This document shows positions 24,924 through 59,280 of a stretch of 64,000 bases of DNA, one piece after another. Made by a program: the position numbers and the translations under genes. The DNA comes from an uncultured Phycisphaerales bacterium (GTDB lineage Bacteria; Planctomycetota; B15-G4; CAYZWU01): the NCBI GenBank assembly GCA_964542475.1, contig CAZIUL010000007.1, forward strand, positions 34,067 to 98,066, given 5' to 3'. The notes beneath the pieces are model-generated. The model saw only the letters and a list, made by a program, of their open reading frames with translations, ran no database searches and had not been told where the DNA came from. Numbering within the stretch: position 1 is the first letter of the stretch; every line of letters starts with the position of its first letter.

Positions 24924-27008
24924 TCACGGGGCCCGCTTGTTCAGCCAGGGCTTCAGCTTGTCCGCGAGTTCGGGTTCTATTTCTGCCCCGAAACGCATGG
25001 CAAGCGTCAGATGTCTCACGGCTTTTTCGGGCTGCTCAAGCATGACACAGGCCTTTGCCAGGTTGTGGTGAGCCTTGGCAAGACCCGGGTCTTTTTCGAG
25101 CGCTTTCTCGAACCATTCGACAGCGGCTTCGTAGTCGCCCCTGTTCGCATAGAGCGAACCCAGGTTGAACAGGGCAAGAACGTAGTTCGGCTGGATCGTT
25201 GCCGCGCGCATCCAGAGTTTCTCGGCCATGTCCTGTTCGCCGCGCCCGGCATAAATGACCGCAAGGTTGAAACAGGCATCAGCGTGCTCAGGATCCATCT
25301 CAAGCGTTTTCTCCAACCCCTCAAACGCATCCTCCGTCCTTCCCTGCCTGTCGTAGACCAGGGCCAGGTTGTGCATGGCAGTGGCCGAGTCCGGCCTAAT
25401 ATTGAGCAGCCGCTTGTAATACTGCTCCGCATCGTTCAGCCGCCCCAACCTCTCGCTTATCACTGCCAGCGCAGTGACGACATCCGGGTTTCCCGGCTCT
25501 TCCTCATAAAGCCTCTCCAGCGCCGGCATGGCCTCGTTGTACTTTTCGCCCTGGAACATTCTCGTGGCGCGATCCAGCTCCGCTTGGACCCAGATCCTCG
25601 ATTTGGGATCAGGCCCGCTGAATGGATCCCCCTCTATGCCGTTGTGCTCCGCGCCGGATGCGTACCCGAGCGCTGACAGCTTCTCCTGCACATCATCGTC
25701 CACCCCCATCCCCGCACCGCTGCCTTCCCTCCCGTTCCGTGACTCCAGGGCGCTGCCATGCAGCAGCTTCATGAGCACGGCATGGAGCTTGCCTCCCTCG
25801 GCCTTGCCTTCCTCGTAAAGGTTTTTCATCTCAACCGGGTCGTCCGCCGTGTTGAACAGCTCCGGTTCAGGCGAGGCGATGTACTTGAAACGTCCTGCAC
25901 GAACCCCTCTCAGCCCTGCCCATCCGAGATCGAAGTATGGAAGAAGCGTCTCAAAGTAAATATGATCGTGGACGCTCGCGGCTTCCCCGGTCACAAGAGG
26001 CACAAGACTGCGCCCTGCAAACCCGTGCACCATGCCTTCGGGCTCTATGTTGAGGATGTCCAGAACGGTGGGCATGATGTCGACCAGGGACACGGGAGTA
26101 TCGATGCTTTTCTGACGCGGAAAAAGCACCGGGTTCGACACGATCAGCGGCACGTGCAGTGTGGAGTCGTAAACAAAGATGCCGTGCGTTTCCTCGCCGT
26201 GTTCGTAAAGGCTTTCGCCGTGGTCGGATGTGACGACGACAAGGGTGTTCGGGGTGTGTCCCTTCATCTTCAGCACCTTCAAAAGAAGGCCGAGCTGCTC
26301 GTCCACGTAAGCGATCTCGCCGTCGTAGGGATTCTCGGCGTACCTGCCGGCAAACGGCTCCGGAGGCTGGTACAAGCTGTGGGGATCGAAGTAGTGAACC
26401 CACAAAAAAAACGGGGACTTTTCCTGCCTGCCCAGGAAGGCAATTGCTCGTTGGGTGACCTCATCGGCCTTGCGCTCGGGAATGGCAAGAGAGCCGCCCT
26501 TTCTTCCGTAGACAATCGCATCGTCGTACTCTTCGAACCCCTGGTCCAGGCCGAACATGGAGTCAAGCACGAACGCCCCTATCACCGCGCCTGTCCGGTA
26601 ACCGCGGCTTTCCAGCGCCTCGGCAAGCGTTGTGAGCTGTTTCCGTGCGCTGTAAACACCGTTGTTTCTGGCACCGTGCGCGAACGGGTATGCACCTGTC
26701 ATGATGGATATGTGCGATGGAAGCGTGAGCGGGCAGGGCGAGTACGCCTTCTCGAATAGTATCCCTTCCGAGGCGAGCCTGTCCATGTTGGGAGTTGCCG
26801 CCGCATCGCAGCCGTAGGCGCCCACGTGGTCGGCTCGCAAGGTGTCCACGGTGACGAGCAGCACGTTATACTGCTTGTTACCGCTGTTCTCGATGGGATC
26901 GCCGCACCCGGCAACACCGAAAAGAAACAGAAGCGCGGCCATGAAAGGGATGCGGATTCCGGATTGCCTGTGCACGGGATGCTTTCCAGTCACCGATTTC
27001 TCCAGCAA
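24924..27008 (-). CDS. Sulfatase-like hydrolase/transferase lipoprotein with C-terminal TPR repeats
   Basis: VTVDTLRADH, PLTLPSHISIMTG, DPH, SDHGE and HVPLI motifs, followed by LSALGY and TPRs; lipobox VAGC. Start uncertain (27008 TTG or 26942 ATG). Confidence 0.88.
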   Translation of the reverse strand: MLEKSVTGKHPVHRQSGIRIPFMAALLFLFGVAGCGDPIENSGNKQYNVLLVTVDTLRADHVGAYGCDAAATPNMDRLASEGILFEKAYSPCPLTLPSHISIMTGAYPFAHGARNNGVYSARKQLTTLAEALESRGYRTGAVIGAFVLDSMFGLDQGFEEYDDAIVYGRKGGSLAIPERKADEVTQRAIAFLGRQEKSPFFLWVHYFDPHSLYQPPEPFAGRYAENPYDGEIAYVDEQLGLLLKVLKMKGHTPNTLVVVTSDHGESLYEHGEETHGIFVYDSTLHVPLIVSNPVLFPRQKSIDTPVSLVDIMPTVLDILNIEPEGMVHGFAGRSLVPLVTGEAASVHDHIYFETLLPYFDLGWAGLRGVRAGRFKYIASPEPELFNTADDPVEMKNLYEEGKAEGGKLHAVLMKLLHGSALESRNGREGSGAGMGVDDDVQEKLSALGYASGAEHNGIEGDPFSGPDPKSRIWVQAELDRATRMFQGEKYNEAMPALERLYEEEPGNPDVVTALAVISERLGRLNDAEQYYKRLLNIRPDSATAMHNLALVYDRQGRTEDAFEGLEKTLEMDPEHADACFNLAVIYAGRGEQDMAEKLWMRAATIQPNYVLALFNLGSLYANRGDYEAAVEWFEKALEKDPGLAKAHHNLAKACVMLEQPEKAVRHLTLAMRFGAEIEPELADKLKPWLNKRAP

Positions 27009-27208: not shown

Positions 27209-29011
27209 TCATGAGTCAATCAAGATCTTCGCTGCCGCGGACGAGGCGGTGACAGCATAGTTGGACGGTTTCATGGTGAAGTAAGCCATGTAAATTAGAA
27301 GTCCCTGAACCACCGGATCGTTGGGTATTGCCAGAGAGGTGGACGCATGACCTGATCCGTCGAGTGTGCCGTTCCATCCGGGAAAAGCTCCCACGGTGAT
27401 CGAATAAAGGAAATCCCAGCCGATGGGAACATGCACTCCGTTTTTGAAGTTGAACCCTGTGTCCGTCAACGAAACACCGTTGTAGTAGATTTGTCCCGCG
27501 CCCGCAGCCCAGTCCAGATCGATATCGAGCAGACCGCCTTTAGCCGCATTGCCGTTAACTGTCAGCGCCGGGCCCTGGCCCAGGTTGACTTCCAGCAAGG
27601 TGGATCTTCCGCCTACTATATTAACGGTGAATGTCTCGGGATCGTACCCTGCAGCGGAAAAGGTGATGTCATAGGCGCCCTGGGGCAGGAAATACTGAAA
27701 ACTACCGAACCGCGGCTCGGTCTTCCGGATCTCGCCCTGTGTGTAATTGATCCCGGTTATCTCGATGTCGGCCACGATCGGTACGCCGGTGTCCGCTTCC
27801 ACGACATGCCCCCTCAGAGGGATCCGGCGGCCCAGAAAATGTTTGACCCCGGGCCAGATGTGGTCCGCGAACTCGGACTGGGCTGTCGAATGCGAGGGCT
27901 GAAAGGAGGTGCCGGTCTCCACAAGGAACGAAAAGGTCGAGGCGTTGCATAGCTCCCACTGGTACGCCTCGCCCTCTGCGGAAGCTTTACGGTGACTGCC
28001 TCCGTAGTTGAATGCAAAAGCGATCTCCTCCGCCTCGCTTTTCAAGTAGCTCTCGAGAGCTGATGGAAAAGAGGATGAAAGGTAGTATGTATAGACCAGC
28101 TCCTGGCCGTAGCTGTGAAAGTCCATGGTCTTGGCAAACCTTCGTTCCTGGGCGAGCGCGACTTCGGTCTTAGTCTCCTGCTCAGAGTTGGGATACGGGC
28201 CCTTGTAAATTATGCTGCTCGGATCGGTGCTGCCCGAATAAGGCCCGTACCAGTTGAAGTCGTAGTTCCGGTTGAGGTCCACGCCGAAGTTTCCGCCCGC
28301 TTGCGGGCTTCTGTTCTTGCGCCACCACTCGTCATAATCGAAACAGTACTGGAAACCGTCCGGATTCCAGCAGCTCGCTATGTAGATCTGGTAGTTATCC
28401 ACCCAGTTGGTAACGGCGGGGTCAGTGCCGTATAACGAGGTCAGGTTCTCTATGATCCAGAGCCCGTACTCGGCGGTTGTGACCTCGCGGGCGTGACGGT
28501 TCAAGGTCAAAAGTATGTTCGGCTCGTCTTCGTCGACATGCACGTTGTCCGAGATCTTCATCACAAGAAGCTGCCTGTCCTCGTGCGTTGTTCCCACACC
28601 GTATTCAATCCCCGCATCGCTCAACAGGGCGATTTCGGGGTGACCGGCCTGAAACCCGAGCAGCTCGGCCTTGTGCTCCAGCCAGTCCCTGTACCCGGCC
28701 GGAATACCCCGCGATCCTTTCCCGGATGAGCTTTCCACAACTCTGAACTTCATGCCGCTCGAACGTAAACTGCTGACCTGCTGGGGTGTGGCAATAACCT
28801 CCACGAACCCGCCGGGTCCGTTCCTGCCAAGGATGTCAAAGCCGGATCGCTCCAGATCGTAGAGCAGAGCAACCGTGTCATCTTGGTAAACTTCCAAGCG
28901 GAAAAACTCTCTGTTCTGTGCAACAAGTGATGTGGTCATGAAGGAAAAAAGAATGGAAACCGACAACGCGACAAAGATCAGGCGGTTAGCGCGGCAATGG
29001 AAGCCTTTCAT
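27209..29011 (-). CDS. Secreted M14 zinc carboxypeptidase (carboxypeptidase T-like) with regulatory-like domain and extra C-terminal domain
   Basis: Signal peptide; HARE (HxxE), WRKNR, GVDLNRN, DFHSYG and FLVETG motifs. Confidence 0.92.
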   Translation of the reverse strand: MKGFHCRANRLIFVALSVSILFSFMTTSLVAQNREFFRLEVYQDDTVALLYDLERSGFDILGRNGPGGFVEVIATPQQVSSLRSSGMKFRVVESSSGKGSRGIPAGYRDWLEHKAELLGFQAGHPEIALLSDAGIEYGVGTTHEDRQLLVMKISDNVHVDEDEPNILLTLNRHAREVTTAEYGLWIIENLTSLYGTDPAVTNWVDNYQIYIASCWNPDGFQYCFDYDEWWRKNRSPQAGGNFGVDLNRNYDFNWYGPYSGSTDPSSIIYKGPYPNSEQETKTEVALAQERRFAKTMDFHSYGQELVYTYYLSSSFPSALESYLKSEAEEIAFAFNYGGSHRKASAEGEAYQWELCNASTFSFLVETGTSFQPSHSTAQSEFADHIWPGVKHFLGRRIPLRGHVVEADTGVPIVADIEITGINYTQGEIRKTEPRFGSFQYFLPQGAYDITFSAAGYDPETFTVNIVGGRSTLLEVNLGQGPALTVNGNAAKGGLLDIDLDWAAGAGQIYYNGVSLTDTGFNFKNGVHVPIGWDFLYSITVGAFPGWNGTLDGSGHASTSLAIPNDPVVQGLLIYMAYFTMKPSNYAVTASSAAAKILIDS

Positions 29012-29177
29012 GTGGAGGCTCCTTTCTTGATGATCCGAACGAATGGAAACCGGCAATCATTGAAATAAAGACCTTATTCCTATACAGTTTACATGACTTT
29101 GCACTGTTTGGCAAGGTTTATATCCCGCAAGCGCACTCTGATGCGGTGGAAAAAACATCGGAAAAATAAGGAAAAAG

Positions 29178-44777: not shown

Positions 44778-46121
44778 CTACGGCAAGAACTCGATCTCGG
44801 CCGCGTTCGACACGTAGTCATAGGGCCCGTACAACAGGAAGGCAAAACGCATTGGAACACCGATCGCATTGGGGGACAGTGGTCCCAGCGTGTTGAACTG
44901 TGCTGTTGCCGACCCTTTCGAGTCAAGGGTTCCCTGGAAATCGATAAAGGCCGGTGTGTTTGCCATCCCAAAGATCAAGGTTGTGACAAAATCCCAGTTC
45001 AGAGGGAAAACCTTGCCGCTCGGAAGAGTAAAACCCGGATCGGTTCCGGTGACGTTTCCAAGAAGAAAGTAGTTCCTGTTCGGGTGGTCCCTGCCCAGAC
45101 CGAGAGAGAAATCTATTGTGCCGCCGGTGGAAACATGGATCCGGTTGTTTTCGAGAGAAAGCGGCCCCACCGCCTCGAAATAGCGCACATAGCCTTCCGG
45201 GCTGTTGTCGAAGTTCCGGTTGCCCACAAGCAGATCCTGCACACCGTCGTTGTTCCAGTCCGCTACATCCAGGCGCGCGTAGTAGACCACGTCGATTATG
45301 CTTCCTCCGGCCTTGAGCTTCATACTTCCGTTGAACAGCGGCGAGACATCAGTGCCTGTGTTTTCCCAGTAGTTCACATTCCCGTTGTAATCGCCGCACA
45401 GGAGGTCCCTCTTGCCGTCCCGGTTCCAGTCAACCATTACCGGGCTTGCTTCGTTCCCGGTGGTAAGAGTGGACACGCCATCCTGCAGCCAGACGGCTCT
45501 GTTGAACACCGGCGTGGAAGTCGGGCTCACGTTAATGAGCAGGTGCACCTTGCCGCCATCTTCTCCCACTAGCAGGTCGACCTTGCCGTCCTTGTTCCAA
45601 TCCACGAAAAAAATGTGGGAATTGAGCCCGCAGTCGTAGTTGACCGCTCCCAGCCTCAGGAAGGTGTATCCGTTGAACTGGGGATCGTCATCCGTGTTTG
45701 TGTTCAGGTAGATGCGAATGGTTCCGTTCCGTTCGCCCACGATAAGATCCTTCTTTCCGTCTCCGTTATAGTCCACGACACGTGGACAAGAACCGAAACA
45801 TCAGGAGTACGATGTGGTAATGGTAACTCCACCGGATTTAAGCTTGACTCCTGCCGGGAACTCTGGATTGAGATCCGTGCCGTTGTTCAGGAAAAGAGTG
45901 ATGTGACCATAACCGAAACACCCGACAAGCAGGTCTTTCGCCCCGTCATTGTTCCAGTCCACAACCTCCGGGGTCGCGTGCCTGTCCACCAGGTAGGGCG
46001 ATCCATTGGCTTCGATGATGACCGCGCTCTTCAGCTCAGGCATCGCTCCATGCGCCGGCCCGGCCATGAAAGCCGACACCAGGAGCACCAGGGGTAAAAC
46101 AAAAAACACCGCTTTTCTCAT
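44778..46121 (-). CDS. Secreted FG-GAP repeat protein with in-frame TGA (candidate Sec107) and C-terminal domain
   Basis: ORFs 45801..46157 and 44778..45776 share a frame and are separated only by TGA (45803-45801) plus 8 sense codons: TITTSYS-*-CFGSCPRVVDYNGDG. RBS GGAGG and signal peptide at 46121; VVDWNNDG-type repeats on both sides of the TGA. Confidence 0.8.
45760..45798 (-). promoter_or_regulatory. Candidate bacterial SECIS element
   Basis: After the UGA: perfect GUCCAC/GUGGAC stem with a GUGUC loop starting at +20; lower stem UUUC-G-GUU / AAC-G-GAGA. Confidence 0.65.
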
Positions 46122-46306
46122 GACAACCTCCAGGATCTCAATGTACTTTATACACACAACACGGGCTTGTTTATCGCCTCTCCAGTATCAGATCGGCAGA
46201 TGAGAAGGGTTGGTTTAGCTGATGATATTTTACACGATCCCATGAAAAACGGAACGTTGAAAACAACAAATATCTTGCATGGATGTCAGGAAGAAGTGTT
46301 CGGTGT

Positions 46307-53831: not shown

Positions 53832-55169
53832 TCAAACCTTGGGCAGTTCCCAGGGTGCGCGGTAGTGGGCGCGCACCATCTCCTGCGCCTCGGCATCGCC
53901 CACGATCTCCTCCTTTTCATCGTCCCAATCCACTTTTCTGCCGGTCCTGAACGCGATGTTCGAGAGATGGCAGGCCTTCATGGACTGGTGAGCGATTTCC
54001 ACGTCGGACACCGGCTTTTCGCGGCTCTTGACGCAGTCGAGGAAGTTTTTGACATGAAGGAACTCGCAGCTGACCGAGCCCTTCTGACGTGGCACCGGCG
54101 TCATCTTGAACCTGCTTCCGCCCTCCGAAGGCTCGGTTTCGGCAGCGATCTCCCATCCCAGCCTGTCAACGACAAGCACTCCGTCGCTGCCTTGAAACGC
54201 AACACCATGCTCGCGCTGCCACGGTCCTATCCCGATGCCGATGGCGTGCTCCCAGATGACCGAAAAACCGTCGTACACCAAAACAGCCTGCTGGGTGTCC
54301 GGGGTTTGCCTTACATCGTCCGGAAAGCCGAACTTGCCCCCCACGGAGATCGCTGATTTCGGTGCCTGGACGTTCATCCCCAAGTTCGCGATATCCAGCA
54401 TGTGCGCGCCCCAGTCCGTCATCAGCCCGCCTGCGTAATCCCAGAACCATCGGAACGAAAAATGGAACCGGTTCCGGTTGAAAGGACGTTTAGGCGCCGG
54501 CCCAAGCCACATCTCATAGTCAACGTTGGCCGGCACCGGCTCGTCTTCCATCGCTTCGAAACGGTACACCCAGTTCAGGTAAGCCCAGCACCTTACCATC
54601 CTGACCTTGCCTATCCCTCCGGATTTCACGATGTCAACGCACTGCCTGTAGTGATCGGCGCTTCTCTGCTGCGTGCCCATCTGCACGACCCGGTTGTGTT
54701 TGCGCGCAGCATTCACCATCACCCGCCCCTCTTCGATGGTCAACGAAAGAGGTTTTTCCACGTACACATCCTTGCCTGCCTGGCAGGCCATGATCGTGGG
54801 CAGCGCGTGCCAATGGTCCGGGGTCGCGTTTATGACCACATCCACATCTTTTCTGTCGATGACTTCCCGAAAATCCTTGGTTACGTCGACAGACTTCTTC
54901 GCCCCCCTTATCTGCTCAACGAGTTCGATGGCCATTTTCAGTTTCCACGAATCCACATCACAGATCACCGCGGGCTCAACCTCACGAACCTTCAAAAAGT
55001 GGTTGAGAAGACTCGTTCCCATTGCACCGCAGCCTATCAATGCGACGCGGATCTTTTCGTTAGGAGAAACAGTTTCTGCTGATGCGCGCCCGGCAAGCAC
55101 CGCGGTTGAAGCGAGCCCCGCGCCTGCGGCCAACTTGGTAAATTCACGTCGCGTCACGCTCTTCCCCAT
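53832..55169 (-). CDS. Tat-exported Gfo/Idh/MocA family oxidoreductase
   Basis: TRREF Tat motif; ALIGCGAMG, ATPDHWH, YVEKPL, GTQQRS, WLGPAP and DWGAH motifs. Confidence 0.93.
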   Translation of the reverse strand: MGKSVTRREFTKLAAGAGLASTAVLAGRASAETVSPNEKIRVALIGCGAMGTSLLNHFLKVREVEPAVICDVDSWKLKMAIELVEQIRGAKKSVDVTKDFREVIDRKDVDVVINATPDHWHALPTIMACQAGKDVYVEKPLSLTIEEGRVMVNAARKHNRVVQMGTQQRSADHYRQCVDIVKSGGIGKVRMVRCWAYLNWVYRFEAMEDEPVPANVDYEMWLGPAPKRPFNRNRFHFSFRWFWDYAGGLMTDWGAHMLDIANLGMNVQAPKSAISVGGKFGFPDDVRQTPDTQQAVLVYDGFSVIWEHAIGIGIGPWQREHGVAFQGSDGVLVVDRLGWEIAAETEPSEGGSRFKMTPVPRQKGSVSCEFLHVKNFLDCVKSREKPVSDVEIAHQSMKACHLSNIAFRTGRKVDWDDEKEEIVGDAEAQEMVRAHYRAPWELPKV

Positions 55170-55185
55170 GGCTTTCTTCTCCTGA

Positions 55186-56322
55186 TCAGGTTGGTTTTTT
55201 CGCATCGACTATTACCCCTCCATCCGGTAAATCAGAGGGGTCGAATCCAAAATCGGTTAAAAAACGGTCCGTAACCTCTTTGTTTATGTCCCAGGAGCAC
55301 ACATCCCTGCGGAACCGGTTCGCCAGCAGATAATCCACGGCAGGCCCGAACGTTCCCATGAACAGCCTGTTCGGCTGGGCCGAGCTCAGGCCTAGAGGGC
55401 CCTGCTCGCTCGCCCACAACGCATCCACAATGCAGAGCTGCTGCCTTGGAAACGCGATCTTTTTTTTCTTCGAGTCCATCTCGCCCAGGATCAGGGGGGT
55501 TTTGTTGACACAGATCAGGTAGTCGGTCCTGCCCTTTCCGTGGGCCGGCTTTGGATCAAAGGTTCCAAAGTGGTTTTTCATGCACATGGTGAAGCCGCCG
55601 AACTCCGGCTGATGGCCCTTGCACACCGCCAGGTTCACAATGATATCCACCTCGCCTTTCACGAGATGACCCAGGCATCCGGTCCTGTTCTTCGCGTTGT
55701 GAACCGGATTGCCGTGCCAGGGTTCCGGCACCTCGGCCTCCGCGTCGAACCCCCCCCACTGGCCCGCGATGTCCACTCCCTCGGGCAGCCCCTTGAACGG
55801 CGTCTTCCTGAGCATGTCCTTCCCGTGGCTCGCGTCGTAGATATGCACATTGGCGGGCTTGACCTCCAGAACATCGGTCAGCACCCGGCAAATCTTCGCC
55901 ATGACAGCCCCGCGAGTGTGCTGCATGGCCAGGTTGTTGGTCTTGACGGCGACAGTGACATCGCTCCATGATTTCCCCGGGGGCTTTATCAGGATCGCCT
56001 TCCAGGCGTCCGCAACACGCTTCTCGCGTGCAAGGGAACAGGCCATGAGGTCGATGTTCTCACTCACCTTTTCACTGTCGGTCAGCTTGTCCTGAGCACG
56101 CCACGGGATGACCGGTTTCAGAATCGTGGTCATATCTGTGTCATGAACCCCAACGACACGCAAAGGATCAAGGTTGGGATGGTACCTGAAGCTTCCTTCG
56201 GATGGATCGCTGCAGAGCCTAGGGATGAAAAACAACGTGCCCGTGCCAAGAGCGGTCGCTCCAAGGGCCGCTCCCTTGATAAAGGATCTTCGGGAAAGGT
56301 CCGCCTCAGAGTTGCCGCTCAT
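55186..56322 (-). CDS. Tat-exported DUF362 domain protein
   Basis: SRRSFIK Tat motif; VAVKTN, VNLAVCKGH...FTMCMKNHFG and LCIVDAL motifs. Confidence 0.75.
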   Translation of the reverse strand: MSGNSEADLSRRSFIKGAALGATALGTGTLFFIPRLCSDPSEGSFRYHPNLDPLRVVGVHDTDMTTILKPVIPWRAQDKLTDSEKVSENIDLMACSLAREKRVADAWKAILIKPPGKSWSDVTVAVKTNNLAMQHTRGAVMAKICRVLTDVLEVKPANVHIYDASHGKDMLRKTPFKGLPEGVDIAGQWGGFDAEAEVPEPWHGNPVHNAKNRTGCLGHLVKGEVDIIVNLAVCKGHQPEFGGFTMCMKNHFGTFDPKPAHGKGRTDYLICVNKTPLILGEMDSKKKKIAFPRQQLCIVDALWASEQGPLGLSSAQPNRLFMGTFGPAVDYLLANRFRRDVCSWDINKEVTDRFLTDFGFDPSDLPDGGVIVDAKKPT

Positions 56323-56446
56323 CGGTTCGGCTCCGATAAAAACCGAGTCACACGGGATAAACAAAACCGGACTTCCGCCTGCCGCCTCCGCTGGGCAAGC
56401 TTCACAACTATGTTTCGAAAGGATCCCGGATATCCTTTAGATTCAC

Positions 56447-57598
56447 TCAGCCCTCATCGGACCCTTTGCTTTCCCCGGAATCCTCCTCGGGTTCGGGCGG
56501 CGCCGGCATGTCGACCTTCACCAGGTCCATGCGCTTTGGATCGTTCGTTCCAAGCCCCCTGGCCGCGGCAGTGGCGATGTGCTTGGCAGGCCTGCCTTTT
56601 TTACCGCCTTCGGCGCGATTTGGCGCCTCTTCGAGCGGCACAAATCCCATATCCTTTCGCGCTTTCACGATCCACTCGTGAACGATCATGTCAACGGCAA
56701 CCGGGTCAGCGGACAGGAGAATCTTCTCGTGTTCGAAAAGATGGTTCATGGACATGAGCTGAGGCCCGCCGTCAGCAACACCGAAAAGACCGTCCAGGAT
56801 GTGCAGCCTGAGCTTGTCGCGCACGCAGGCGATGTTGTTTATATCCGCGATGTGAGGATCGCAGCAGTTCGCGTGGCAGAGCCAGGGGATGTCCACCACC
56901 GCGTGCGAAATGTTCTTGAGCGCGCCGGTTACGCCTGAGCATGCATGGTCTTTCAGCACCGGGATGTTGATGATCGCTGTGAGCTCGTTCGCAACCAGCT
57001 CCGCTACCTTGACCTGGCCCCATGAAAACTTCTGCGGCTCTGTGTCGAAACCCGAAAGAGGCTTCCCGCCCATGTAGTTCTCCTCTCTCAGGGCCGGCGT
57101 GCACCCCTTGAAAACCACATCTTTCTCAGCCAGCTCACCCCTCATTTTCTTCACGTAGTACTTGTGCAGTGTCTCTTCCACCTGGTCCCACACGATGATG
57201 TTCTTCATGGGAACGCCGGCTGCCAGCACACCGTTGTAAACCGTCTCCAGTATGCTCTCCTTGCTGCTGATCAGGCGGCCGCCGCCGCTGTTCAGCTTGA
57301 TGCCGACCACATCATCCGGCTTCACGAAACAACGCCATGCCGACGCTGTATCTTTTTTCCCTGTAAGCGCCAGCATACCGCGCTCAACCATCTTTTTGAC
57401 GCGATCCTCATCCAGCCGCTTTCCGAGCGTCACCGCGCCCGGCGCTGACACCTCGATGACACGGCTTTTCTCCCCTCCGGAAGGACGAGGCTCCTCAGCG
57501 CCCCTGAGAAGCGCTTGCGGGCCGAGCGCCGCTGCAGCGCCGGCTGTTGCGGTTTTTTTGATGAACGATCGCCGATCCATACCTGTTGTCTTTTTCAT
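56447..57598 (-). CDS. Tat-exported DUF362 domain protein
   Basis: DRRSFIK Tat motif; VGIKLN, INIPVLKDH..SGVTGALKN, LHILDGL and DPVAVD motifs. Confidence 0.85.
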   Translation of the reverse strand: MKKTTGMDRRSFIKKTATAGAAAALGPQALLRGAEEPRPSGGEKSRVIEVSAPGAVTLGKRLDEDRVKKMVERGMLALTGKKDTASAWRCFVKPDDVVGIKLNSGGGRLISSKESILETVYNGVLAAGVPMKNIIVWDQVEETLHKYYVKKMRGELAEKDVVFKGCTPALREENYMGGKPLSGFDTEPQKFSWGQVKVAELVANELTAIINIPVLKDHACSGVTGALKNISHAVVDIPWLCHANCCDPHIADINNIACVRDKLRLHILDGLFGVADGGPQLMSMNHLFEHEKILLSADPVAVDMIVHEWIVKARKDMGFVPLEEAPNRAEGGKKGRPAKHIATAAARGLGTNDPKRMDLVKVDMPAPPEPEEDSGESKGSDEG

Positions 57599-57720
57599 GT
57601 TCAAGGTCCTTAATCAACAAAACGAGTATGGGTGCCGGTCAACAACCTACCATAATTCGGGGGAGCCTTACGCAATTAGGGCGTTGGAATCGACTCCATC
57701 AACAATCAAGTCCCCCGAGT

Positions 57721-59280
57721 TTACTCCACTTCGAAAGTACAGAGGTTGGTCAGTTTATAACCGATCATCGCCTGGAAGTAAACTGTGTAGGGGCCGGGAG
57801 GAGCAGGCGGCACCGTACCCGGGTGCACGAGCACACCGCAGGAAGGGATCGAAGGAAGAGGAGGCAAAACGGCAAAAGGGAAGCTGATGTACCAGTCGCC
57901 GTACGCGCTCGGCAGGGGAGGATCATAAACGCTGAACCCGGCCACCAACCCTACCTGAGCGGTCAGGGGATCGCCGACGAATTTAAGCTCCACGCACTGG
58001 CCGGGGGAGGGATCGCCGGTGAAATAAAGATGCCTGTGAAATTCATCCGCCCCGATATCCGGTCCGGCTCCGAATGTACGCTCATCGTACTCGAAGTCGG
58101 TTTCCGGAAGCCCGGGGGCCAGGCTGTCCCCGGCATCTCTCAAAGGCGAGTGATGGAAGATGTGGAAATCGTTGCCCTCCGCATCGACAAAACATGGGTC
58201 ATCATCGATGTTGCCCGTTCCGGGGCAGCCGCCCTCCACGTCGCAGAACGAAACCAGAGGTGTACTGTTCATTGCCAACAACTGCTTGGGAACGTTTCCA
58301 TAGACGATGCAGTTCGTGATGCTGGGCGAGCTGTTATAGCAAGCAATGCCGTACGCCGAGTTTCCAAAGATGGTGTTGTTCGTGATCCTCATCGCCGAGG
58401 ACGTGGACATACACTTGATGCCGCCGCTCTTGTTGCCGTAGATGATGTTGTTGACGAAATCACCTTCTCCCATGAAGCTCTGGATGCCAACGGAAGCGTT
58501 GTCGTGGATGACGTTGCCGCGAACAGATGAATTCCCGTTACAAAAATAGAAGGCGCCGTAAAAGCCTAAGTTGGCAATAACCAGGTTGTTCTCCACAACC
58601 GGAAAGGAGTCTAAACACTCTATAGCGCCGGAGTGCCATGCGCCGTTGTTCTCCACAAAAACGTTGTAGGTTATGACAGGCCATGAGTCGACGCAATGCA
58701 TACCGGCTCCGCCGCACTTGCAATAGTTTCCCGAGATAATGTTTCCCTGGACCAGGGGTGAGGAGTCGGAGGAGTAAACCCCGCCGCCCTCGGCGCTTCA
58801 GTCCCAGGGCGGGCCGTTCTCAACGATCAGGTTGTCCTTTATCGATGGCGAGGATCCGTCCTTGCAGCAGATCCCGCTCCCGCGCGGGGACATGTTCTGA
58901 GTGATCACGTTGTTCGTGATCAAGGGCGCTGAACCGCCGCAAAAAATCCCGCCGCCCAGAGGAGACTTCCCGTTGCAAATGGTGAAGCGCTCAAGAACCG
59001 ATCCTTCCCCCTCCCCGCTTTCAAACGTCACAACACTGCCCGCCTCCAGGCCGTCGATGATCGACAACTGTGGGCCGTCCTCGCTGGTAAGTGTAATGGC
59101 CTTACCATTGAAATCGATGTTTTCCGCGTACGTTCCGGCAGCGACAAGAACCACATCACCGTCCGATGCCGCGTCGATGGCCCCCTGTATCGTGGGATAA
59201 TCCAGGGGCACATGAACAGTGGCTGCAAACGCGGCAGCCGTATGATACAGAACGATGCCGATGATGATTGTCTTTCTCAT
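57721..59280 (-). CDS. Secreted right-handed parallel beta-helix protein with in-frame TGA (candidate Sec161) and C-terminal domain
   Basis: ORFs 58798..59310 and 57721..58701 share a frame and are separated only by TGA (58800-58798) plus 32 sense codons that continue the repeat: NGPPWD-*-SAEGGGVYSSDSSPLVQGNIISGN. VPLDYPTIQGAID N-cap; RBS GGAGG and signal peptide at 59280. Confidence 0.8.
58760..58791 (-). promoter_or_regulatory. Candidate bacterial SECIS element
   Basis: After the UGA, +7 to +38 folds as GAGGG/CUCCUC-side, CGG/CCG and GGGG/CUCC stems, with G-U at the apex (+19/+20). Confidence 0.5.

Follow-up and report, generated by a model that had tools for sequence, protein, structure and literature searches.

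The locus considered here is a 64,000-nucleotide stretch of a contig from an uncultured Phycisphaerales bacterium (Planctomycetota), hereafter the window, whose minus strand encodes three proteins with signal peptides and unrelated architectures: an M14 carboxypeptidase, an FG-GAP/VCBS propeller and a right-handed beta-helix protein. Each ends in a tail that we assign below to one of two families of C-terminal domains, CTD-A and CTD-B (Table 1). The carboxypeptidase (open reading frame (ORF) 27209-29056) carries Peptidase_M14 (PF00246, E 6e-49) and CarboxypepD_reg (PF13620, E 1.7e-5) domains, its recorded 600-residue product, P0253, begins at the Met of MKGFHCRANRLIFVALSVSILFSFMTTSLVAQ, and its terminal ~120 residues have no Pfam match; the jackhmmer envelope of the tail (residues 498-613 of 615) stops two residues short of the stop codon. 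The FG-GAP ORF (44778-45776), which runs in frame over one TGA (45801-45803) into 45801-46157, ends in ~130 residues without Pfam annotation (envelope 210-340 of 340, independent E-value 5e-53), and this tail forms the first row of our CTD-A alignment. The beta-helix tail (envelope 242-358 of 358) follows a passenger that holds one in-frame TGA at 58798-58800.

Table 1. Parts of the three tail-bearing genes, by position in the window.
Feature	Position	Strand	Remarks
CTD-A, divergent "M14-type" subfamily	27212..27565	minus	last ~118 residues of M14 carboxypeptidase
M14 carrier passenger: signal peptide MKGFHCRANRLIFVALSVSILFSFMTTSLVAQ, Peptidase_M14, CarboxypepD_reg	27566..29011	minus	
CTD-A, typical member	44781..45173	minus	reaches last residue of FG-GAP/VCBS propeller protein
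FG-GAP carrier passenger: signal peptide, FG-GAP repeats	45174..46121	minus	Pfam FG-GAP_3, FG-GAP
CTD-B, second tail family	57724..58074	minus	reaches last residue of beta-helix protein
Beta-helix carrier passenger: signal peptide, right-handed beta-helix	58075..59280	minus	Pfam Beta_helix, NosD

A preliminary description of this sequence, which placed the tails correctly to ~10 bases, had aligned those of the M14 and FG-GAP proteins by eye and proposed that they share a domain. Their homology is borne out both by BLASTP (E = 1e-9, 28% identity across 107 residues) and by iterative searching. When six-frame ORFs of the window's own 4.87-Mb assembly were searched from the FG-GAP tail, phmmer and jackhmmer converged on 51 ORFs, each with one copy, and jackhmmer placed both tails in this single family. 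In hhalign, the profile for the M14-type subfamily aligns to that of the main family with a probability of 99.9% (E = 4e-34); judged by profile similarity, the M14 tail is a divergent member of CTD-A.

The domain is ~125 residues long and ends 0-5 residues before the stop codon in 49 of the 51 ORFs; the strictly terminal position expected from the preliminary description was found in 96-97% of carriers. Its expectation that the domain would accompany N-terminal signal peptides likewise agrees with our data: with in-frame TGA codons read through, all but three carriers have a signal-peptide-like hydrophobic start, the three being a contig-edge fragment, a short ORF and a kinase. A stricter but crude heuristic, applied without TGA read-through, detected signal peptides in 34/50 carriers against a background of 32% (p = 4e-7). 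Internal copies, which the same description had counted as evidence against its proposal, do occur but are few (2/51 for CTD-A and 2/27 for CTD-B), and no carrier is cytoplasmic.

Neither Pfam nor NCBIfam has a model that covers CTD-A. With an E-value limit of 1, neither Pfam-A nor NCBIfam 20.0 gave a relevant hmmscan match to the tails or to any of the 49 aligned members, a profile search of all PDB sequences gave no match, and in full-text literature searches we found no paper describing such a domain. Some 120 homologues, all from metagenome-assembled genomes (MAGs) of Planctomycetota, have Pfam lists restricted to their passenger domains and bear names such as "hypothetical", "VCBS repeat-containing" and "agmatine deiminase family". 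A search of 1.84 billion representative proteins gave 8,212 matches to CTD-A with E ≤1e-3, of which 4,914 had E ≤1e-10, and the domain occurs in >8,000 protein clusters at 50% identity. In the best 150 of these matches it lies ≤6 residues from the end in 147 and is present as a single copy in all but one. A cultured carrier was sought among three homologues and none was found.

The distribution of CTD-A across genomes is all-or-none, with large expansions. It was found in 41/41 sampled genomes of the order, at 40-62 copies per genome in the family to which the window belongs and 2-28 elsewhere in the order, and in 29/151 sampled genomes of the phylum, consistently within families. In the phylum sample the best 27 candidates per genome were scored, and the count for several genomes is thus at least 27. 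The suggestion that the domain is lineage-specific stands as far as a lineage-restricted C-terminal domain is concerned; the "system" that was proposed with it is so far unsupported, as no co-distributed set of outer-membrane or processing genes was found.

The fold of CTD-A is predicted with confidence. AlphaFold2, run on the 49-row alignment, returned an immunoglobulin (Ig)-like beta-sandwich of about nine strands and one short helix (predicted local distance difference test (pLDDT) 96.2, predicted TM-score (pTM) 0.87). Foldseek comparison of this model with the PDB gave generic Ig-like matches only, with query TM-scores ≤0.47 among the top-ranked matches; the nearest folds are pilus chaperones, RbmA, the Nir2 C-terminal domain, and macroglobulin and CARDB-type domains. 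On the strength of the model, CTD-A appears to have no close solved structural relative. The most conserved stretch, SGTxPGxPLPGGxxLPLNWD, is modelled as a long, irregular, Gly/Pro-rich loop containing an invariant Trp-Asp, and the last strand, FVSNPVxIxIxP, closes the protein. Conservation peaks in this loop and the terminal strand, and not in the core strands alone, a pattern which fits recognition by a common partner.

The proteins to which CTD-A is attached are diverse and typical of the cell surface or the extracellular space. The N-terminal parts of the carriers fall into ~30 unrelated clusters, in agreement with the earlier remark that the tail is borne by unrelated passengers. Pfam identifies Peptidase_C25 in ten carriers (seven with Propeptide_C25), FG-GAP in eight, and M14, S8 and PAD_porph in three each, while further passengers comprise M28 and C1 peptidases, beta-helix/Chlam_PMP, lectin-like and kelch proteins, endonuclease I, a metallophosphoesterase and one protein kinase. 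C25 gingipains, the deiminase PPAD, the M14 carboxypeptidase CPG70 and S8 proteases are classical cargo of the type IX secretion system (T9SS) in Porphyromonas. The likeness between CTD-A and the T9SS is one of cargo type, not of the tag itself.

Comparison of orthologues and of upstream domains places CTD-A, at the level of protein sequence, in what may be called the "anchor slot" of exported proteins. A search with the M14 passenger alone showed CTD-A at the end of each of the 25 nearest orthologues (44-65% identity), while remoter orthologues of similar length end in FlgD_ig (Eisenbacteria MAGs), PKD (archaeal MAGs), dockerin, or nothing recognised. That M14 orthologues swap tail modules at one position supports the assignment of CTD-A to such a slot. 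Choice-of-anchor domains owe their name, according to their NCBIfam descriptions, to the variety of C-terminal sorting signals that follow them from taxon to taxon. A match to choice-of-anchor Q (NF041518, choice_anch_Q) lies just upstream of CTD-A in four carriers, and the window's CTD-B begins directly after the GADEF end of such a match. Many of the C25 and M14 carriers share a "DNPNDDxVEAxLDDF" domain that gives weak choice-of-anchor J matches, the J model itself (NF038128) matching two carriers only, and weakly; the Q and J scores all lie under the curated cut-offs.

The beta-helix tail had been described as similarly sized but more divergent, which is fair as a description; its membership of the same family was not established. 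BLASTP of this tail (57721-58140) against the M14 and FG-GAP tails detected no similarity, nor is it recovered from the window's own genome by the CTD-A profile. It instead founds a second family, CTD-B, of whose 27 ORFs in the genome 25 have the tail in terminal position and none is a CTD-A carrier. AlphaFold2 predicts a nine-strand sandwich (pLDDT ~93 over the domain) whose fold again matches generic Ig-like structures only. Profile-profile comparison of the two families gives a weak, colinear match (E 1.3e-3 over 98 columns), which strengthens to E 6.5e-5 (probability 64%) when the M14-type subfamily is compared with CTD-B after trimming of the flank; moreover, the alignment of the CTD-B profile to the M14 tail of the window spans nearly the full length (E 8e-4 when 51 sequences were searched). 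From these alignments a remote homology of CTD-A and CTD-B is probable but unproven. They are tied more strongly by common passengers and a nested distribution than by sequence similarity. Homologous passengers take either tail (beta-helix, 4 A and 20 B; PAD_porph, 3 A and 6 B), and the 19 CTD-B-positive genomes of the phylum sample all lie within the 29 that are CTD-A-positive, CTD-B being present in 0/122 CTD-A-negative genomes (Fisher test 3e-17, not corrected for phylogeny).

We lean towards the view that CTD-A is a localisation tag, serving in sorting or anchoring, which works like the T9SS CTD without being one. On this view CTD-A and, probably, its distant relative CTD-B would mark the C-termini of exported proteins for localisation in part of the Planctomycetota. 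Carriers would cross the inner membrane through the Sec pathway by means of their N-terminal signal peptides. The folded C-terminal sandwich could then be recognised, through the SGTxPGxPLPGGxxLPLNWD loop and the FVSNPVxIxIxP strand, by a putative envelope component, which would either move the carrier across the outer membrane or hold it at the cell surface. Our data establish the family, where it sits, what it is attached to, its fold and its distribution; recognition by a partner, like any translocation, anchoring or cleavage of the carriers, is inferred.

Several observations weigh against reading CTD-A as a tag, the outcome of our search for machinery (following paragraph) among them. Two CTD-A copies are internal and are followed by an unannotated domain of ~180 residues, and two CTD-B copies precede an FGE-sulfatase (SUMF1-like) domain (C65:18-2396 and C4:133229-136615, outside the window). 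A further CTD-A copy is degenerate, in that the LPLNWD motif is missing, and belongs to the extracytoplasmic region of a Ser/Thr kinase. Such internal and kinase-borne copies indicate that the CTD-A fold is stable and can function, or at least survive, away from a free C-terminus, and they weaken a strict "C-terminal signal" model. No Pro/Thr-rich flexible linker or recognisable cleavage motif was seen upstream of CTD-A, and an Ig-like sandwich could equally be used as a binding module. Regarding the exceptions themselves, the architecture of CTD-A plus ~180-residue extension recurs in metagenome proteins P0245-P0249, and the extension also stands alone as a 198-residue ORF; the ORFs concerned lie outside the window, at C36:3145-4938, C19:27681-29438 and C29:36327-36920. 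The kinase carrier (C26:37013-39616, also outside the window) has one transmembrane helix, by which it is anchored in the inner membrane, and an ectodomain composed of a beta-helix, a GADEF (choice-of-anchor Q-like) segment and the degenerate CTD-A. The arrangement resembles that of a cargo-type ectodomain taken over as the sensor of a kinase.

Machinery that might read the tag was sought in the genome, among the neighbours of carrier genes and by co-distribution; none of these approaches yielded a set of outer-membrane or processing genes that accompanies CTD-A, or a neighbour conserved among carriers. SprA (TIGR04189) gave no candidate in the genome, though no control genome matched either; PorV (NF033710) was also not found, the control matching weakly in B. 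thetaiotaomicron; and the type A T9SS CTD (TIGR04183) had no match in the whole genome, again with no control genome matching. As the control genomes hardly matched, our statement that a T9SS is absent rests partly on the known restriction of that system, which to our knowledge is confined to the Bacteroidota/FCB group. The neighbours of the 78 carrier genes include only abundant paralogue families as recurrent elements (sulfatases, Ser/Thr-kinase-TPR proteins and extracytoplasmic function (ECF) sigma factors) and no envelope machinery. Genomes with only 1-3 CTD-A genes were examined on the reasoning that the last cargo might adjoin its machinery, and their loci have no common neighbour. C25 peptidases are not co-distributed with CTD-A, being present in 86/151 genomes and absent from the CTD-A-positive genomes G005, G010 and G013.

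Three candidates for such a component were considered and set aside. The C25 peptidases score 50-70 bits against the PorU model, whose cut-off is 420, and do so over the catalytic domain only; a role as PorU-like sortase was rejected on the grounds of this generic C25 similarity and the lack of co-distribution. Exosortase is an unlikely reader, given that the CTD-A tail has no PEP or transmembrane motif and that the genome encodes about one PEP-CTERM protein. A possible core component, a DUF1028-Ig-CTD-A protein common to three genomes of low copy number, was rejected because its passenger has no homologue in the present genome. The one exosortase gene (PF09721, E 1e-52) lies on contig C4:38573-39343, and a regex scan of the assembly yielded about one convincing PEP-CTERM-like ORF (C45:27079-27549), which is not a carrier; both are outside the window.

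The leading alternative is that CTD-A is an Ig binding module, akin to a carbohydrate-binding module (CBM) or an adhesin, with no role in export, that tethers its carriers to a substrate polymer, a particle, a prey surface or the cell's own envelope glycan. The generic Ig-like sandwich is compatible with this, the invariant Trp-Asp loops could form a ligand site, internal copies and a kinase-ectodomain copy exist, and PKD or dockerin modules occupy the same slot in other lineages. However, binding modules are usually arranged in tandem, at either end and in varied positions, whereas CTD-A is single and nearly always terminal. Its passengers, moreover, have very different substrates (peptidases, deiminases, a nuclease) or are not enzymes at all, and passengers so varied make a shared substrate ligand unlikely. 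If the ligand were the cell's own envelope, such binding would amount to anchoring, which is what we propose for the tag. We thus regard a binding module without further role as rather unlikely. Like the PPC, dockerin and PKD tails with which it might be compared, CTD-A is a small beta-rich module at the C-terminus of secreted hydrolases, but unlike them it is not restricted to enzymes, forms no tandem repeats and has no known cohesin-like partner; none of the 49 tails has a Pfam match of dockerin, PPC, PKD or CBM type with E ≤1. The domain could also be a PPC-like C-terminal pro-domain, or a folding or spacer domain, that aids folding or latency and is then removed without conferring an address. 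Many carriers are indeed peptidases with N-terminal propeptides of their own (C25, S8, M14, M28), and CTD-A abuts its passenger without a linker. About half of the carriers, however, are non-enzymes (FG-GAP propellers, beta-helices and kelch proteins), CTD-A and CTD-B are interchangeable on the same passenger families, hmmscan of the tails and carriers found no PPC match, and a genome-wide, all-or-none distribution is not expected of a folding aid. On these counts a pro-domain seems improbable to us.

Known C-terminal sorting systems offer the remaining comparisons. The type A CTD of the T9SS (Por_Secre_tail; TIGR04183 / PF18962; Bacteroidota) is, like CTD-A, an Ig-like sandwich found once at the extreme C-terminus of Sec-exported and otherwise unrelated passengers, of which there are tens to hundreds per genome, and the two overlap in cargo (C25 gingipain-like, PAD, M14, S8). 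It is nonetheless smaller (~70-90 residues, against ~125 residues, nine strands and a helix), and has no detectable sequence similarity to CTD-A, which, for its part, is sometimes internal. The shared position, general fold class and cargo might suggest that CTD-A is simply a very divergent T9SS CTD served by a cryptic T9SS. This we find hardly credible: none of the 49 members matches TIGR04183, PF18962 or PF13860 with E ≤1, SprA, PorV and PorU orthologues were not found (with the weak SprA and PorV controls noted above), and both the low PorU-model scores of the C25 carriers and the phylogenetic confinement of the T9SS point the same way. The FlgD Ig-like (PF13860) tail of candidate phyla of the FCB group fills the same slot on orthologous M14 + CarboxypepD_reg carboxypeptidases, as in the Eisenbacteria MAGs, but occurs in different phyla and has no hmmscan match to CTD-A. 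PEP-CTERM/exosortase and other short CTERM signals are, again, C-terminal tags confined to certain lineages and borne by many exported proteins unrelated to one another, often after a choice-of-anchor domain. These, however, combine a short motif with a transmembrane helix and a basic tail, whereas CTD-A is a soluble folded domain that has neither PEP motif, transmembrane helix nor Arg/Lys-rich end, and closes in a beta-strand without a hydrophobic helix.

Some features of the carriers and their surroundings deserve separate mention. A single in-frame TGA within the mature protein splits 10/51 CTD-A carriers as well as the window's beta-helix CTD-B carrier. In most of the split CTD-A carriers this codon lies near or beside a Cys, in contexts such as SYSUCFGSCP, TCGUCRGSSP, SYGUCIGSSP, TYCUGM, PLUCIEY, NCUDTT and CSTUGS. 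The genes concerned are the two in the window (45801-45803 and 58798-58800, minus strand) and eight further carrier genes elsewhere in the genome, and the codon contexts suggest that these carriers are secreted selenoproteins. Adjoining the M14 carrier is a gene (24924-27008, minus) which, by eye, encodes a sulfatase fused to C-terminal TPR repeats; 22 members of this paralogue family lie near carrier genes, and members of it are also included in the largest C-terminal-tail cluster of the genome (50 ORFs). Within 6 kb of carriers there are nine kinases and four sigma factors, ECF sigma factors (PF07638) being paired with Ser/Thr-kinase-TPR proteins (outside the window, C41:21567-25104, C52:3168-6926, C74:4141-7591 and C26:39652-40284). 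Such pairs may regulate cargo genes. Finally, window positions 53832-57604 (minus) hold three successive genes whose translations show twin-arginine-like signals, TRREFTKLAAGAGLAS, RRSFIKGAALGATALG and RRSFIKKTATAGAAAALG.

The domain shared by the M14 and FG-GAP tails is real, and its family is much larger than the two tails in the window had suggested. It is possible, although we put this forward tentatively, that the two together form a cargo-signal superfamily for a novel Planctomycetota pathway of outer-membrane export or surface attachment, evolved independently of the T9SS and serving ~80 proteins in this genome, gingipain-like peptidases and secreted selenoproteins among them, and a larger number in certain relatives. 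As degraders of marine polymers Planctomycetota are of major importance, and we know of no account of the way in which exoenzymes and adhesins come to lie on or outside their unusual envelope. CTD-A occurs on 1-2% of the proteome, yet is unannotated in current domain libraries. Its recognition would improve the annotation of carriers now named by their passenger or as "hypothetical", offers a direct handle for predicting the surface and secreted proteome of these uncultured bacteria, and provides bait for the machinery that reads the domain. Should that machinery turn out to be a new secretion or attachment pathway, it would represent a second, independent invention of the T9SS strategy, in which a folded C-terminal domain serves as the address.

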